Virus record (IMG/VR): IMGVR_UViG_2734482549_000013
Source of the DNA: a virus
Lineage: Duplodnaviria > Heunggongvirae > Uroviricota > Caudoviricetes
Direction: 5' to 3' (one strand)
DNA: 45,259 nucleotides
Of this stretch, positions 6,671-18,760 are shown piece by piece. The notes under the pieces were generated by a model, which was not told the DNA's origin, searched no databases, and saw nothing but the letters and a program-made list of their open reading frames with translations. Made by a program: the position numbers and the translations under genes. The number at the start of each line of letters is the position of its first letter. The stretch's first letter is position 1.

Positions 6671-7159
6671 ATGTTGGATGTATTTACTCCATTGTTGAAA
6701 CTTTTTGCTAACGAGCCACTCGAAATACTTATGTATACGATTATCATTTTTGGTCTCACTCTCTGGCTGATACCGAAAGAGTTTACTGTCGCATTCAATG
6801 CTTATACTGAAATACCTTGGCTCTTTCAGATTATCGTTTTTGCCTTTTCTTTCGTGGTCGCCATTTCCTTCTCAAGATTGCGAGCACATATTCAAAAGCA
6901 TTATTCATTACTACCAGAGCAACGAGTATTGCTTCGTTTATCTGAGAAAGAAATCGCTGTATTTAAAGATTTCCTTAAAACAGGAAATCTTATTATCACT
7001 TCTCCTTGCCGTAACCCGGTTATGAAAAAATTAGAACGGAAGGGCATCATTCAACATCAGAGTGATAGCGCAAACTGTTCTTATTATCTCGTCACCGAAA
7101 AATACTCCCATTTTATGAAGTTATTCTGGAACAGCAGGAGTAGACGTTTTAATCGTTAG
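6671..7159 (+). CDS. sieB: Superinfection exclusion protein B, 162 aa from MLDVFTPLLK, membrane protein
   Basis: Internal start of track ORF 6548..7159; hydrophobic N-terminal segments; sequence recalled as SieB. Confidence 0.85.
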   Translation: MLDVFTPLLKLFANEPLEILMYTIIIFGLTLWLIPKEFTVAFNAYTEIPWLFQIIVFAFSFVVAISFSRLRAHIQKHYSLLPEQRVLLRLSEKEIAVFKDFLKTGNLIITSPCRNPVMKKLERKGIIQHQSDSANCSYYLVTEKYSHFMKLFWNSRSRRFNR

Positions 7160-7311
7160 CTTACTGTGTGCTTCTCCAACCATCGGCGCGCACCAGTTTC
7201 GGTTTTAAATGTTTTGCTTTTGGTATACGTCATGGCAGTGAACGTTCCATCCTGGTTGGGGAACACGCCGCACACCAGGGATTCGTTGTTGCCGAGGTCG
7301 ATTTTTTGCAT
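7156..7311 (-). CDS. ydaG: YdaG-like small protein, 51 aa (MQKIDLGNNESLVCGVFPNQDGTFTAMTYTKSKTFKTETGARRWLEKHTVS)
   Basis: Manual minus-strand translation; stop overlaps the sieB stop region; not in ORF track. Confidence 0.5.
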   Translation of the reverse strand: MQKIDLGNNESLVCGVFPNQDGTFTAMTYTKSKTFKTETGARRWLEKHTVS

Positions 7312-7321
7312 TTTGCGAATC

Positions 7322-7504
7322 TCACATCTTGTTGCTGTGTATAGCGACTTCTGCCTGCCAGAGATCCCAGTCGTTGCTGCGTAAAGCCTGCACAGCCTGG
7401 TTGTAAGTGATACCGCAACAATCCATCAAATACTGAACTACTTCGTAATGCACCATCTTATCTCTCCCCTTAACGCCGGGTGGCGGAACTGAAACCTGCT
7501 GCAC
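7322..7504 (-). CDS. ydaF: YdaF-like small protein (start uncertain; internal Met at 7456 gives MVHYEVVQYLMDCCGITYNQ...)
   Basis: Track ORF; first gene of the leftward early operon downstream of the racR-distal promoter region. Confidence 0.5.
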   Translation of the reverse strand: MQQVSVPPPGVKGRDKMVHYEVVQYLMDCCGITYNQAVQALRSNDWDLWQAEVAIHSNKM

Positions 7505-11326: not shown

Positions 11327-11341
11327 TTGCCGGAGGCGCTT

Positions 11342-11758
11342 ATGGCAAAAGTTTTTACACAGGAAGAGCGTGAAAAAATTAAGGAGCAGGTTGTTGAGTT
11401 GGTACGCCAGAGTGGGCGCGAGACGTTAAGGCAACTGGAGGCCAAGACAGGTGCGACAAGATATCTGATGAGCATTCTTGCCAGAGAGTTGGTTGCCAGT
11501 GGCGATGTATACAACTCTGGCTATGGGTTATTCCCGTCTGAACAGGCTCGTAAGGATTGGAAAAACGCCCGCAAAAAACTATCCAGGGCAAAGGTGAAAA
11601 AAACGGTTGTGGTTGATCCTGACCTTATCTGGTCATTACCAGACGGAGAAATACGCCGCTATGACAGGCGTCAGAACATAATCTGTCGCGAGTGCCGGAA
11701 GAGTGAAGTTATGAAACGTGTACTGGCATTTTATCAAGGAAATCTTCGGTATTTATAG
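11342..11758 (+). CDS. Hypothetical basic phage protein, 138 aa from MAKVFTQEER
   Basis: ORF with GGAGG Shine-Dalgarno at 11333-11337; no family recognised by eye. Confidence 0.5.
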   Translation: MAKVFTQEEREKIKEQVVELVRQSGRETLRQLEAKTGATRYLMSILARELVASGDVYNSGYGLFPSEQARKDWKNARKKLSRAKVKKTVVVDPDLIWSLPDGEIRRYDRRQNIICRECRKSEVMKRVLAFYQGNLRYL

Positions 11759-11896
11759 ACGTTACTAGATCAAAGAGCATTAGTTCATATGTAAATTGAC
11801 ATTTTTCTGGCACAGGGGAGAGCTAGCGTGGTTGTCCGCTTTGTGCCAATAGCGGACATTGCTGGCTCATGGTATGTTAGTTTAAGGAGGCAGGTT

Positions 11897-12919
11897 ATGC
11901 CCTGTATTTCGCTGTGGTATAATAGTTGCGCAATTGATACAAGGGAGCGTTACATCGTGAAAATTGTTTTCGAGGTTAATGGAAAGAAAGTTCCACTAAA
12001 ATCTTTAAAATACATAAGCAAAAAAGATCAACTCGAAGTAATGAAAAACTGGTTCTTTGAAAACTTTGAAGATCCGGCAAATGCTTGTCCGTATGAAAGT
12101 AGAGAAGGTGGCTATGCTTACATATATGGCGGGCCGTATGATGCGAGCGAAGAACTACAATCCATCTTCGGTCAATATGTTAAATCTGAGTATATTGAGG
12201 AATTAGTAGATGAATTACAAACACAATGTTTTGACTGGTCTGGAAACTCAAATAATATAGATGATTGGTACGATGATGATATCTACGACGCTGTAACGTC
12301 TTCCGGTAATCCGTATTTAAAATTCATTGATAATATCGATAAAATAAAAAAACTTGCAAAAGATAAAACTGAACAACAGCAAAAAAACCACTTGCTTAGT
12401 TTGCTCTACACGAATGTTATTACAGCTTTGGAAACGCTTTATGTTGAGCTATTCATTAATTCTATAGAGAAAGATGATGTCTACATAGCCAATTGTATAG
12501 AAAAAGGTAAGACTGAATTTAAAGTAAGCAAAGATATTGCTGCGTTGCCTTTCAAGGGTGAACCCATCGAGAAAATTAGGGGAGAGCTAATCAGGTCAAT
12601 CAAGGAACACTTGATCAGTGCAAGCTGGCATAGCACTAAAAAGGTAATCGACCGCTATGAAGCTACATTCGATATAAAAGTACAAAAAGACTGTCCGATA
12701 GAAGCTATTGAATTGGCAACCCTCAATCGAAATCACTTAGTGCATCGTGGTGGAAAGGATAAAGAAGGGAACCTCGTAGTGATTACAGACCAGGATCTTG
12801 AAACGCTGATTGAAAATGCATCGAACCTGGCAATTATGCTCTACAACAGTTTAAATGTAGCAACGAATAAAACCACCATTTTGCAACCAGATGACAAACC
12901 GTTCATTCATGAATTTTAA
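11897..12919 (+). CDS. Cargo gene A, 340 aa, AT-rich; C-terminal HEPN-like RNxxxH motif (LNRNHLVHRGG); candidate defense/abortive-infection effector
   Basis: AAGGAGG Shine-Dalgarno at 11884-11890, ATG at 11897; codon usage visibly AT-rich compared with flanking phage genes; motif at 12728-12745. Confidence 0.7.
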   Translation: MPCISLWYNSCAIDTRERYIVKIVFEVNGKKVPLKSLKYISKKDQLEVMKNWFFENFEDPANACPYESREGGYAYIYGGPYDASEELQSIFGQYVKSEYIEELVDELQTQCFDWSGNSNNIDDWYDDDIYDAVTSSGNPYLKFIDNIDKIKKLAKDKTEQQQKNHLLSLLYTNVITALETLYVELFINSIEKDDVYIANCIEKGKTEFKVSKDIAALPFKGEPIEKIRGELIRSIKEHLISASWHSTKKVIDRYEATFDIKVQKDCPIEAIELATLNRNHLVHRGGKDKEGNLVVITDQDLETLIENASNLAIMLYNSLNVATNKTTILQPDDKPFIHEF

Positions 12920-12934
12920 TAGCGCAGGTCATAC

Positions 12935-13936
12935 ATGGATATTCGCACACGAAAGACAAAATTTTTAGAGTCGTTAGATTCAACTGAAGTGATACGCAAA
13001 GCAGTAAGTCTCGCTATAGATTGCATTATTGATAATCATAATAGTAATGAAGATACCCCCTTAGTTATTACCAGCTATGATGATCTCTGTAGAATCCAGG
13101 TGCTAAATTATGTACAGGAGTTTTGCGAAGCTGCATTCCCTGATATGGATGAATATTACTTTAGTCCTAACATACTTCGCATCAACGGCAAGACTAGTGA
13201 AGAAGCTTGTATTAACTTAATTAAACTCTTAAGAAGTACAAAAGGCATGCTATTCTGGTCCGATGCCCCATCGTGGTTCGCTAGCCTCCCCGACGGATTA
13301 TTCCATGTTGTTAACATTGATCAAAAAATCGTTACTCGCGGCCTTAATAAGAAAAACTCTAAGCCGACAATAATCAATAAAGATTACAGTGTAGATACAC
13401 TACTATCAGAGCTATTTTTGAATGGCGCACACATGGAGCAACCCAACGTACACAACGTTTCTGAGGGAAACATGAAGTTCTATGATGAATGCCATGCTGG
13501 ATTAATCAGACCAATACCCGCTCCAATAGGCGCGTCATACGATGAAGAGATCACAATTAATTCTCCAGATTGGCAAAAGCTCGCGTGTGTAGCTTTACGC
13601 CGCTATCAGTCGAAGGAATGTCATGACGGAATGCAATGGGATACAACCGATCATGGTTGGACTGATGTAATCGCGTATCCATTCGTCGAAGAAATACAAT
13701 CAATGGATAATAGTGGTTATCGACAATGTTTAGTTGGGCTGGTCACAATAAACAATTCAAATGCAAATTCTCCGTACCTATCTACCGTTTGGATACATCC
13801 ATTTTATCGCAGGAGAGGGTTATTAAGTAAGTTATGGCCAAAATTACAAGAGTTATATGGAAGTAACTTCGAAATTGAGCGACCTAATGAAAATATGAAA
13901 GCATTTCTGAAAAGTGCGAAACACGCAGATTACTAA
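12935..13936 (+). CDS. Cargo gene B, 333 aa, AT-rich; C-terminal GNAT-like acetyltransferase motif (VWIHPFYRRRGLLSKL)
   Basis: Starts 15 nt after gene A stop (operon-like); motif A-like V-x-P-x-Y-R-x-x-G at about 13786-13826. Confidence 0.7.
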   Translation: MDIRTRKTKFLESLDSTEVIRKAVSLAIDCIIDNHNSNEDTPLVITSYDDLCRIQVLNYVQEFCEAAFPDMDEYYFSPNILRINGKTSEEACINLIKLLRSTKGMLFWSDAPSWFASLPDGLFHVVNIDQKIVTRGLNKKNSKPTIINKDYSVDTLLSELFLNGAHMEQPNVHNVSEGNMKFYDECHAGLIRPIPAPIGASYDEEITINSPDWQKLACVALRRYQSKECHDGMQWDTTDHGWTDVIAYPFVEEIQSMDNSGYRQCLVGLVTINNSNANSPYLSTVWIHPFYRRRGLLSKLWPKLQELYGSNFEIERPNENMKAFLKSAKHADY

Positions 13937-14113
13937 TTTATGAATCAGTCTGTGGAGTTAGGGTTGGTGTGAACAAGTAGGGTAAGAGCCTCAACGTGAT
14001 GCTATGCCGACCTGCTCCCTGAGAATTCACACAGAAGGCTGCTAGCAATGTCTGCAGATCGCTCAAAGCGGACTAAAATGTTGGCTTGTTTCTGACTTAG
14101 AGCATTTAAGGAA

Positions 14114-14338
14114 GTGCTGGTGGTGACTGGTTGTTGTGTTCCATTTCTACAGAATAAAATCACAGAAACTATACCCAATAGTTGTATTGAATCACTGACG
14201 AGACAGCCTCATATTTATCAGGACTGGTGTGCGTCTAATACAGGGGGTTGTCGTGCTGGTTCTCAAATGTGCGCTGGCTATTGCGGCTGTAATGGCAATT
14301 TATTGTCTTGCTGTTGTTCTTATGGAGCGGCTTTCTGA
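14114..14338 (+). CDS. Possible small Cys-rich peptide (11 Cys in 74 aa; GTG start); may be non-coding
   Basis: Track ORF; CRAGSQMCAGYCGCNGNLLSCCCSYG; weak start context. Confidence 0.2.
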   Translation: MLVVTGCCVPFLQNKITETIPNSCIESLTRQPHIYQDWCASNTGGCRAGSQMCAGYCGCNGNLLSCCCSYGAAF

Positions 14339-14497
14339 TTGATTACATACTGGCTAGAAAAAAGGTGTTACCTTGGTTTATCTTTGTCCGGCAAGGTGCG
14401 CTCATTAATCTTAAGTAAATTTATTGCTCAAGTATTCAGATTACTTCTTATGGTTGAAGTCTCCTGTCAATGTAGAACCAATATATTTACAAAAATG

Positions 14498-14545
14498 AGA
14501 CCCGTCGGGGATAGCCCTGCCGGGTCTGACTGTTAAAGCATTTTT
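14498..14545. terminator. Hairpin AGACCCG...CGGGTCT with flanking T/A runs between the cargo genes and the convergent yeaR-like gene
   Basis: Inverted repeat 14498-14504 / 14521-14527 read directly; T-run on the minus strand just beyond the stem. Confidence 0.45.
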
Positions 14546-14556
14546 AATATGATCAT

Positions 14557-14895
14557 CTATTTTTTGGTGCTATAGACTTTTTCGCCCGAAAAGTCTGGAG
14601 CGACCCAAAAGTTAATATTAAACTGAGCATCATCGCTTAGTTCAACACGGTGCCAGTATTGTGGTGGGCTTGTTGCAAAAGCGCCAGCATTAATGACTAC
14701 TTTTATCTCCGGTTCAGTAGCATTCTCATCAGTAAAACCATAATATGTTACAGTGCCTTCCATTACGCACAACTGCCCAAAAACACCTGCTGCTGTATTA
14801 TGATGTGTTAATAACGCTGAAGGTACGTTCTCTTTTGTGAAGAACGGAGTTGAGCGTTTGATTACCCAATCTTTAGGAATTCTCTTGTGTGTCAT
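14557..14895 (-). CDS. YeaR-like DUF1971 protein, 112 aa from MTHKRIPKDW
   Basis: Conserved pattern RSTPFF ... VMEG.V.Y.G..DE...EP ... AG.FA..PP..WH ... DD..FNI.F.VAP matches recalled E. coli YeaR. Confidence 0.65.
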   Translation of the reverse strand: MTHKRIPKDWVIKRSTPFFTKENVPSALLTHHNTAAGVFGQLCVMEGTVTYYGFTDENATEPEIKVVINAGAFATSPPQYWHRVELSDDAQFNINFWVAPDFSGEKVYSTKK

Positions 14896-15708
14896 AACCA
14901 CCTCCTCCAAAACATGCATTAAAAATGCATCTTTTGGAGGGTTATGTCAAGCTGTTATGAAACACATAATTGATATGTTGATTAGAGGAGAAGATAGAAT
15001 AAATATGGTTGTTTTTCGTATAACTATTTGTTTTACTTTTAGTTTATGCATTCTGTGTGTTAGGAATAAGTTATTAAAGTTTAATCAAAAAATCTCGATG
15101 TAGTCCACATAGATTACTGTTACTGAACCTTATTGTGTGTATTAGTTGTGTTCTGAAATTTCAGCTTAATTATTTATGATGTATTTTTTAACGATAAATA
15201 TTTTCCCAGGATACCTTTACTGTGTATATAAATAAATTATATACGCATAAATAATGTAAAGGCGTCCTTTTAGATATATCTTATCAAATGTTAATGACTT
15301 GAGTGGGAAATATGATTCCAGCAACTTATCATGTGGCTACTTTATAAAAATAATGCCCATATAAAACAACAAGCGAAAAGGATTACGGATAAAAAAGGAG
15401 CGAGATGTGCGAACTTGTTATTTTCCATGTTTAACCACCTTAAATAATTGATGATGACGGGATGATTGCATCTGTAATGCTTTTATTGAAATGTTATGAT
15501 AAAAAAGAACTTTTGCATAACATTAAAATGTAATTTATCTAATCGTTTTTAATAATAAGTGTCGTATTTCTATCCTTGTACCAGCTATTTGATATGTAGT
15601 GTTTGTTCATGCTATGTGGGGCTTTACACCATAGCCAGTTTATTTATACTTTATTCGTCAGCCTGAACAACTGGCATCTGCTGCGCTGCGCCATCGAGAG
15701 ATTGAGAA

Positions 15709-16308
15709 ATGGCGCATATACAACTGGTCAAACAAACCTCTTCTGGTTTACTTCTCCCGGCGACGCCGGAGAGTTGCGATTTTCTGCATCAAATCAAAAT
15801 AGGTGAGTGGATACACGCAGACTTTAAGCGTGTGCGTAACTACGCATTCCACAAGCGTTTTTTCAAACTCCTGCAACTGGGATTCGATTACTGGACTCCG
15901 GTCGGTGGGGCGATCACGCCTCGCGAACGAGAACTGCTGTCTGGTTTCGTTGATTACCTGTGCGAATCAGTTGGTCGGGAACACACGCCAGCCCTGAGTG
16001 ATGCCGCAGAGCAATACCTTAACACCGTTGCGACTCGTAGAACCCGGGATACGGCGTTGCTAAAGTCGTTTGAGGCTTTCCGCGAGTGGGTAACCATTCA
16101 GGCCGGATTTTACACCGAGCATATTTATCCGGACGGTAGCCGTGGGCGTCGGGCAAAATCCATCGCTTTTGCGAATATGGACGAAGTCGAGTTTCAGCAG
16201 GTTTATAAATCTGTACTGAATGTGCTGTGGAACTGGATTCTGTTCCGTAAATTCTCCTCTCAGGAGGAAGTTGAAAATGTGGCCGCACAACTACTGGAGT
16301 TTGCGTAA
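15709..16308 (+). CDS. nin-region phage protein, 199 aa (DUF1367-like by recollection)
   Basis: ORF immediately upstream of and overlapping the ybcO-like gene (ATGA overlap at 16305-16310). Confidence 0.5.
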   Translation: MAHIQLVKQTSSGLLLPATPESCDFLHQIKIGEWIHADFKRVRNYAFHKRFFKLLQLGFDYWTPVGGAITPRERELLSGFVDYLCESVGREHTPALSDAAEQYLNTVATRRTRDTALLKSFEAFREWVTIQAGFYTEHIYPDGSRGRRAKSIAFANMDEVEFQQVYKSVLNVLWNWILFRKFSSQEEVENVAAQLLEFA

Positions 16309-17590: not shown

Positions 17591-18181
17591 GGGCTGGTTT
17601 ATTGTATGCCAAATGATTATTAAAAAGGTTGTGTTAATAACAAGATCCGAAATAATATGCCTGCATATTTTTATCTTGCTTATATTCTGCATATTGTGCA
17701 TAGCAGGCTCATCCCTGCAATCAAAACTGTATGATGAGTATTTTTTGTTTTCCTTTTTTCCAGTCATCTGATGATGACCTGCTTCTTTTTAATCCGGATC
17801 GACATCAGTTTTTTAAGATAATTCCTGCGAGTTATATGCATAAATGCCACAAACTCCGCATTTTATGTGGTTGGGAGTTGCCGGGCGCGCAGTGAGTTTG
17901 CTAAGAAAACTCCTGCATGGTGAATCCCCCTGTGCGGTGGGGTGATACCATTAACCTTTTCTGTCGCCGACAGGTATCACGAACATTTTGTTCACCGGGA
18001 GGCACCCGGCACCATGCACTTCAATAGATTCTCTCCACATTATGGATATTCTTTCAGAATATCCCACGCAGACTTTGTGTAAATGTTAACAAATGTGCGT
18101 TTTATTTGATCTGATTCGCTGTTTGAGCGTCCAAAACAACGGTATATATAATCCTTTACTATATGACATATGTGAGGAAAA

Positions 18182-18610: not shown

Positions 18611-18760
18611 TATTTATTGTTTTGTAATAAACGGTTTCGGCTTAGGTTTGTTCTGACACAGCTACGGCACTGAGCTAAATTTAGCGGATAGTCAGCTCTG
18701 AGCCAGTGGCGGACGTAACAACTACTATTGCTGAGATTTTAATGGATTGAGGAGCAAGAA

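Follow-up and report, generated by a model that had tools for sequence, protein, structure and literature searches.

What does a protein of 333 amino acids (aa) do when it sits among the cargo of a prophage and its RefSeq entry says only "hypothetical protein"? The question is raised by gene B (12935..13936, + strand; WP_000354966, PHROG 16994) of the IMG/VR virus record IMGVR_UViG_2734482549_000013, whose whole 45,259-nt stretch is called the window here. A preliminary description of this DNA had read the C-terminal part of B as a GNAT acetyltransferase of the kind found in toxins, had left the N-terminal part unexplained, and had implied that B works together with the gene upstream, gene A. 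We find that B consists of two domains: an N-terminal one (aa 1-187; 12935..13495, +) with a P-loop-NTPase-like (nucleoside triphosphatase) alpha/beta fold that lacks the Walker A loop, evolves fast and is probably a recognition module, and a C-terminal one (aa 188-333; 13496..13933, +) with a minimal GNAT fold, homologous to stand-alone phage proteins of ~160 aa. On balance we favour the view that B is an autonomous two-domain acetyltransferase effector, carried as cargo by mobile elements and acting in conflicts between phage and host or between elements.

The peptides on which the GNAT assignment had been built are real. Positions 13787-13834 (+) translate exactly to VWIHPFYRRRGLLSKL, inside the open reading frame (ORF) 12935-13936, and positions 13886-13936 (+) to NENMKAFLKSAKHADY*, the C-terminal end of B. 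The interval first given for the motif, 13786-13826, points to the right place but starts one base early and ends 8 nt short of the peptide. The literal pattern V-x-P-x-Y-R-x-x-G has no match in B, in which I287, and not a valine, stands two residues before the proline. A loosened pattern, [VIL]-x-P-x-x-[RQ]-x-x-G, turns up 3 times when the window is read in all six frames (90,514 residues), which is within the range of chance, so that the motif alone proves nothing.

The assignment was nevertheless borne out by Pfam, by the family alignment and by a structure model, all of which place a GNAT fold in the C-terminal part of B with its beta4-alpha3 motif where it had been proposed. Pfam Acetyltransf_1 (PF00583) matches aa 264-311 of B with E = 9e-4 (19.9 bits, for a cut-off of 20.7 bits) and is matched by 13 of 36 diverse members of the B family at E <= 0.01 (best 6e-6); two relatives of B carry a precomputed PF00583 tag. 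An AlphaFold2 model of B, made from a 36-sequence alignment, is confident (predicted local distance difference test, pLDDT, 89.9; predicted template-modelling score, pTM, 0.84), and a Foldseek search with it against viral models retrieved phage GNATs at probability 1.0. The elements of the C-terminal domain follow each other in the model as alpha1, beta2-beta4, alpha3, beta5 and alpha4, with the GNAT core beta4-alpha3-beta5-alpha4, i.e. the acetyl-CoA-binding fold, present. At the level of the fold B is a GNAT, of a divergent, truncated branch of the superfamily.

Conservation is concentrated in the same region. Motif A (beta4-alpha3; 13787..13834, +) contains the invariant residues W286, H288, P289 and R292, together with a variable G295, and the family alignment adds P317, M321 and F324 to the invariant set. 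M321 and F324 belong to the C-terminal part that had been likened to the usual GNAT helix, a likeness that holds: helix alpha4 (13886..13924, +; N318-E-N-M321-K-A-F324-L) has the motif-B-like spacing N318-x-x-M321-x-x-F324 and, by comparison with the canonical GNAT pattern, is the probable equivalent of motif B. Nowhere in the protein is conservation higher than at the start of the C-terminal domain, IRPIPAP...SPxWQKLACVALRRYQSKEC, and aa 188-232, on the acceptor side, form the most conserved segment of B (mean column identity 0.78). Six invariant polar residues (H288, R292, E228, Q225, R222 and S210) cluster at the motif region in the full-length and in the stand-alone families. Searches of PDB chains with B alone and with the family profile returned only chance-level matches (SAGA Sgf11, E = 0.39; a radical SAM protein, E = 0.054), as did a search of NCBIfam, while a search of PHROGs returned only the "unknown function" families 16994 and 36762.

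The N-terminal ~180 aa had been described as a separate module, and so they are; they diverge faster than the GNAT half and are no longer unexplained, given their P-loop-NTPase-like alpha/beta core from which the P-loop has been lost. This assignment is new here. The Walker A motif is absent in every family member examined, the connection from beta1 to the following helix being just "TSYDD". A Walker-B-like strand, LLYWAD, is kept, with D110 near-invariant, and further polar residues of the domain are invariant or near-invariant (D29, C30, N34, R100, H124, R135 and N138). Identity to the most distant relatives of B is 25-33% in the N-terminal domain vs 52-57% in the GNAT half, the N-terminal domain diverging about twice as fast, and its rate of non-synonymous substitution (dN) is higher in most pairs. 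Because it diverges faster while the module it is attached to stays conserved, we regard the N-terminal domain as most likely a module for recognition, recruitment or the sensing of a trigger, set on a conserved catalytic module.

The GNAT half is also a module that has evolved on its own. When 1.84 billion representatives were searched exhaustively with a profile, 480 proteins matched at E <= 1e-3, among which full-length two-domain proteins number only about a dozen. Many of the others are proteins of 150-180 aa that cover profile positions ~180-330 with E-values of 1e-37 to 1e-20, keep S210, W213, the RRY-x-x-x-E segment, W242, G268 and the hallmark W-[IV]-H-P-F-x-R, and match phrog_36762. 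A word-indexed search with a profile of the stand-alone domain gave 6 proteins, and the census of this stand-alone family is hence a lower bound. The full-length family comprises about 66 clusters, in Gammaproteobacteria, and a tblastn search with B against 50,697 deposited phage genomes gave no match for the full-length protein. All four stand-alone genes with usable contigs lie in phage, prophage or satellite-like DNA: on a phage contig (L024, 3619-5411) a gene of ~160 aa, upstream of the terminase, has a 4-nt overlap with the stop codon of a DUF3987 (primase/helicase-type) gene; a second gene lies between a portal/PLD-nuclease region and an antirepressor (L025), a third near an integrase (L026), and the fourth in an element with integrase, primase-helicase and small terminase genes (L023). 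The place of the L024 gene after DUF3987 echoes the position of B just after replication genes. A derivation of the N-terminal domain of B from this DUF3987 helicase was considered and rejected (hhalign probability 0.15%). We also noted two proteins, P0234 (568 aa) and P0242 (492 aa), with two W-[IVC]-H-P-F-x-R GNAT-like modules each, one internal and one C-terminal, which make up a third architecture.

Is B, then, one half of a two-gene system? Gene A (11957..12919, +; WP_014639476) encodes 320 aa from a GTG start and has a HEPN/RES N-terminal domain 1 together with, as seen in its homologues, a RiboL-PSP-type HEPN domain. Its start is set at GTG 11957 because RefSeq and the homologues start there; a 363-aa ORF from GTG 11828 was rejected, its 5' part overlapping the conserved promoter and palindrome leader. 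Pfam HEPN_RES_NTD1 matches A at E = 1.9e-4, and its homologues carry PF18870 and PF18735. The family has an invariant R258-x4-H263-R264-x-G266 and a conserved N-terminal block, EDPxxxxPYESREGGYxYIYGGPYDA, and a role as a ribonuclease (RNase) is plausible. PADLOC models gave only chance-level matches to A, and a PDB search with A found no relative. The 15-nt spacer between A and B (12920..12934, +; TAGCGCAGGTCATAC) holds a second stop codon and an AGG ribosome-binding site and is near-identical in every copy, those from which A is deleted included.

The pair, with this same spacer, is found in E. coli prophages, on an E. coli IncF plasmid (with identical proteins), on a Citrobacter IncFIB plasmid, in a Serratia grimesii island and in a mobilisable element of Aeromonas caviae, in which A is 86% and B 79% identical; it is present in about 205 of 5,426 complete E. 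coli genomes, and an identical B is present on a Klebsiella plasmid. One further copy, on a 3.3-kb contig assigned to an actinobacterial metagenome-assembled genome labelled Collinsella sp. (MAG; L005, JAIHTM010000277.1), encodes A and B 100% identical in aa to those of E. coli, and is most likely a binning contaminant rather than a sign of wider host range.

The coupling of A and B that had been implied did not hold up. Homologues of B at or below 62% identity are all without A (Shewanella, Idiomarina, Marinomonas, Colwellia, Paraglaciecola, Arsukibacterium, Neptunicella, Psychrosphaera, Motilimonas and Serratia supply B genes without A), and B stands without A at loci L002-L004, L007-L016 and L034-L037. 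Conversely, A-family genes with 56-74% identity stand alone (L017-L022) in Dickeya, beside ParE/HTH genes, and in Aeromonas, at prophage ends. Natural deletions are the clearest case: Rahnella (L007) and Enterobacter (L034-36) keep only the last ~80 nt of A, to which the promoter leader is joined and behind which B stands intact (86% identity), and on a Providencia plasmid (L028) A is frameshifted and B intact. The ratio of non-synonymous to synonymous substitution rates (dN/dS) is 0.12-0.16 for A and 0.24-0.36 overall for B, with 0.26-0.36 for B in the lineages in which A is deleted or frameshifted. B is thus under purifying selection, also where A has been lost. It follows that B is not a toxin that A restrains, nor an antidote that would be meaningless in the absence of A. 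Pairing is confined to one clade and does not show the co-occurrence of an obligate two-gene system; functional synergy between A and B within that clade is possible. Homologues of B without A in housekeeping contexts had been named beforehand as evidence that would count against the coupling; homologues without A do exist, but their contexts are mobile elements and defence islands, not housekeeping ones.

The joint travel of A and B has a simple explanation in their DNA. They lie in a cassette of 2.24 kb that is bounded by inverted repeats, has its own putative promoter, and is found on prophages, plasmids and integrative elements. Its left boundary is a 24-nt palindrome, GTCCGC-N12-GCGGAC (11834..11857), at the core of a 46-nt arm (11821-11866), and its right boundary a 24-nt palindrome, GTCTGC-N12-GCGGAC (14050..14073), at the core of the arm 14041-14086; the two arms form an imperfect inverted repeat (72% over 46 nt). 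The palindrome pattern has 6 matches in the window vs 0.49 expected and recurs at cassette ends in other loci, and it is exactly at the two palindromes that homology to the copies on the plasmid and in Serratia, Rahnella and Enterobacter starts and stops. A third copy with 1 mismatch (GTCAGCTCTGAGCCAGTGGCGGAC, 18691-18714) lies 4.6 kb downstream of the cassette and may be a chance occurrence or a related site. No transposase or recombinase gene was found inside the cassette. An extended -10 element, TGGTATAAT (11915..11923, +), lies 34 nt upstream of the start of A, is followed by a good ribosome-binding site for A, and is kept as TGGTA(T/C)AAT in L006, L027, L007 and L034, loci with A deleted included; from these sequence features it is a putative promoter. 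A scan for consensus promoters and terminators found no more sites than in shuffled controls, and missed this element for want of a -35 match. That A and B travel together needs no explanation beyond their linkage in one mobile cassette.

The site at which the cassette lies gives a hint of its use. The window is a complete Rac-like lambdoid E. coli prophage, with integrase, xis, ralR/RalA, recET, kilR, sieB and the ydaU/ydaV replication genes, followed by lysis genes, trkG, terminase and tail genes. Its backbone has a GC content of ~50% vs 34-43% in the cassette. In Rac-like prophages the interval at ~11760-15700, between a DUF977 gene (11327-11758) and a DUF1367 gene (15709-16308), the first of the DUF1367/DUF1364/DUF1133 genes on its right side, is a variable cargo slot. 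In other E. coli it holds the IetAS anti-phage system (annotated iteA/iteS), a NACHT-domain protein with hokD, a Doc toxin with hokD, a Dcm methylase with an O-methyltransferase and an ATP-binding protein, or KilA-N with Hok and TehB; a sixth sampled strain, seen from the DUF1367 side only, has a Hok/Gef toxin, an IS4 transposase and a nucleoid-associated protein.

Outside E. coli, B lies beside McrBC (L006), SIR2-HerA (L009), Abi_2 (L004), SIR2 with a cREC receiver (L030-33), or HigBA with a Tse2-like ADP-ribosyltransferase (L010). Across more than 20 loci no neighbour of B is conserved. In Psychrosphaera (L015) a ThsA-like SIR2 protein (969-2483) starts 15 nt after B, and in a Serratia MAG (L008) a YunG-like gene of 148 aa (6999-7445) overlaps the stop codon of B; these two may be lineage-specific partners. 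Taken as guilt by association, the neighbourhoods are solid grounds for a role of B in conflict.

How would such a protein work? In the mechanism we propose, the C-terminal ~145 aa would bind acetyl-CoA or another acyl-CoA at the loop W286-I-H288-P-F-Y-R292-R-R-G295 and at alpha4 (N318..M321..F324), and the GNAT domain would acylate an amine of its macromolecular target. A conserved macromolecule is suggested as the substrate because the most conserved segment of B (aa 188-232) is on the acceptor side. The N-terminal ~187 aa, having lost the nucleotide-binding loop, would recognise or recruit the target, sense a trigger, or regulate the enzyme, and the host element would thereby be shielded from competing phages. 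Our leading guess for the phenotype is anti-phage activity, or superinfection exclusion, through acetylation, and B is a credible candidate for an acetylation-based defence protein. Of all this, the data bear out the fold, the two-domain architecture with its pseudo-NTPase half and the modular origin of B, its independence from A, its mobility, its residence in a hotspot and in defence islands, and purifying selection; catalytic activity, the acyl donor, the substrate and the defence phenotype are inferred.

A wider form of the proposal, which we put forward tentatively and regard as doubtful in its full extent, is that B and its ~160-aa relatives are an uncatalogued family of mobile-element acetyltransferase effectors with a W-I-H-P-F-x-R signature. 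On this view the pseudo-NTPase domain of B would detect or bind some part of a phage, whereupon the GNAT domain would acetylate a conserved macromolecule and so halt the infection. B would then be a single-gene anti-phage system, which one clade carries together with a HEPN RNase inside a cassette that lacks a transposase.

Several observations weigh against an acetyltransferase effector in defence. The score of B is just under the Pfam Acetyltransf_1 gathering cut-off. In canonical GNATs the pyrophosphate loop of motif A reads Q/R-x-x-G-x-G/A; the loop of B is R292-R-R-G295-L-L297, with R292 invariant and a leucine at the G/A position, and G295 is shifted or replaced by Arg/Lys in several members (YRRRRL, YRRKKL, YRGKKL). 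Leu325 occupies the position of alpha4 at which the general-acid tyrosine usually stands. No beta6 or beta7 strand is found in the model of B by DSSP, the chain ending in helix 319-331, and the stand-alone homologues end at the same C-terminal point. With these leucines, the variable glycine and a chain that ends at alpha4, B may be a non-canonical or a non-catalytic GNAT. As for its role, some loci (L016, L011) have no defence neighbours near B, and neighbourhoods do not separate defence from counter-defence, the assignment to defence being itself guilt by association; the phage-borne stand-alone homologues fit counter-defence equally well. PADLOC-DB v2.0.0 models gave no match to B at E <= 10, a literature search by protein accession (WP_000354966 and WP_014639476) found no mention, and keyword literature searches gave general precedents only.

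There are alternatives to this reading. One is that the GNAT-like domain is a non-catalytic scaffold, or that its substrate is a small molecule (an antibiotic or a polyamine, for instance), the conflict context being due to hitch-hiking. Against it, the invariant polar cluster argues for an active site, a conserved extra domain of 187 aa is unusual for small-molecule GNATs, and the gene is absent from housekeeping contexts. We consider this alternative very improbable. A toxin of the TacT/AtaT/ItaT type that acetylates aminoacyl-tRNA, and in which the fused N-terminal domain would replace a separate antitoxin as internal inhibitor or sensor, is improbable to a lesser degree. In its favour are the GNAT fold on mobile elements, and the basic-rich loop after R292 and the conserved acceptor-side segment 188-232, which would fit a universal substrate such as tRNA; tRNA targeting is a common defence strategy (PMC12409363). 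Only a little less doubtful is a counter-defence or host-takeover enzyme, similar to AcrVA5, that acetylates a host immune or housekeeping protein, the N-terminal domain mimicking or docking an NTPase-type target. Stand-alone homologues in phage genomes, near replication, terminase or antirepressor genes, and the presence of B on plasmids and prophages speak for it, with AcrVA5-type GNATs as an established precedent (PMC10799925). Yet full-length B also resides in chromosomal islands beside SIR2-HerA, McrBC and Abi_2, is missing from the deposited phage genomes searched by tblastn, and occupies a prophage slot that in relatives holds defence or toxin cargo.

The remaining alternative makes A and B one functional two-gene system, either a HEPN RNase (A) controlled through acetylation by B, like a type VII toxin-antitoxin (TA) system, or a pair of sensor and effector. 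It is unlikely, though the least so of the four. Gene order and the 15-nt spacer are the same in Escherichia, Citrobacter, Serratia and Aeromonas, the two genes have diverged together in Aeromonas and are carried on prophage, plasmid and mobilisable backbones, a single putative promoter and a single inverted-repeat-bounded cassette serve both, and the Rx4H HEPN motif of A is invariant. However, linkage in one mobile cassette suffices for such co-travel, and three facts are at odds with a joint function: B intact and under purifying selection in Rahnella, Enterobacter and Providencia with A deleted or frameshifted, distant homologues of B that all lack A, and A-family genes that live alone in Dickeya and Aeromonas. 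We keep to an autonomous acetyltransferase effector as the more probable reading of B.

Other features of the window lie around the cassette. Just past it, a DUF1971/TehB-family gene (14557-14919, -; Pfam E = 2.5e-26) is followed by ~650 bp of 29-34% GC (14950-15600) in which neither a noteworthy ORF nor a match to Rfam was seen. The RalA antitoxin small RNA (sRNA; 1557-1735, +; Rfam, 225 bits) lies next to ralR, and the sRNA STnc100 (17885-18071, +; Rfam, 86.6 bits) downstream of the DUF1133 gene.

The natural alleles with A deleted are a genetic control that separates the function of B from that of the HEPN gene, and the family is compact and tractable, B being one 1-kb gene in the defence slot of a very common E. 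coli prophage. If the proposal is true, the pseudo-NTPase plus GNAT architecture would show how inactivated NTPase domains can be reused as recognition modules. Even without any phenotype the annotation becomes cleaner: a GNAT-fold protein, neither hypothetical nor a TacT-like toxin.

B was also compared with the closest known systems. Within the GNAT superfamily (PF00583) it differs by its sub-cut-off score, the variable loop glycine, the leucine at the G/A position, the lack of a tyrosine at the catalytic position and an end after alpha4; its domain is preceded by the strongly conserved IRPIPAP...WQKLACVALRRYQSKEC, and H288 is invariant at a position where the residue usually varies. Like B, the toxins TacT, AtaT, KacT and ItaT are GNAT domains on mobile elements, and B too may act in growth arrest or defence. 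They are, however, single-domain proteins of ~160-180 aa, a size matched only by the stand-alone relatives of B, so that the preliminary description was right about a protein roughly twice as large, with its 333 aa and two domains, and wrong about the class it was framed by. TacT/AtaT toxins have an adjacent, co-inherited RHH/DUF1778 antitoxin, whereas upstream of B there is a HEPN gene and no antitoxin gene, and B has no obligate partner; nor is B specifically close to them in structure. By antitoxin, size and co-inheritance alike, B is not a member of this TA class.

In the N-terminal domain the alpha/beta core and a Walker-B-like hhhhD strand recall degenerate P-loop NTPases (AAA+, ORC-Cdc6, STAND and SF1 helicases), but P-loop NTPases such as AAA+, STAND and SF1 have Walker A as well as Walker B, which sets B apart from them. 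The RNA cytidine acetyltransferases TmcA and NAT10 have a helicase-type P-loop domain followed by a GNAT domain, plus DUF1726 and a tRNA-binding tail; B has neither Walker A nor these accessory modules, gives no two-domain structural match, and so falls outside that family too. Acetylation is an established weapon both in TA systems (TacT/AtaT) and in counter-defence (AcrVA5), while to our knowledge GNAT effectors have been characterised in few systems that act against phages. As small mobile-element GNATs, AcrVA5 and its like are comparable to the ~160-aa stand-alone relatives of B in phages; B itself has an extra domain and is often found in host defence islands, and no sequence or specific structural link between the two was found. 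AcrVA5 and AcrVA5Bsp are anti-CRISPRs of phages and mobile elements that acetylate a protein of the opponent (PMC10799925). A further precedent is given by Brc113 and BrcP, GNAT-domain proteins encoded by single-gene integron cassettes, which reportedly confer protection from phage (10.1101/2024.07.02.601719); the comparison of B with them is one of description.

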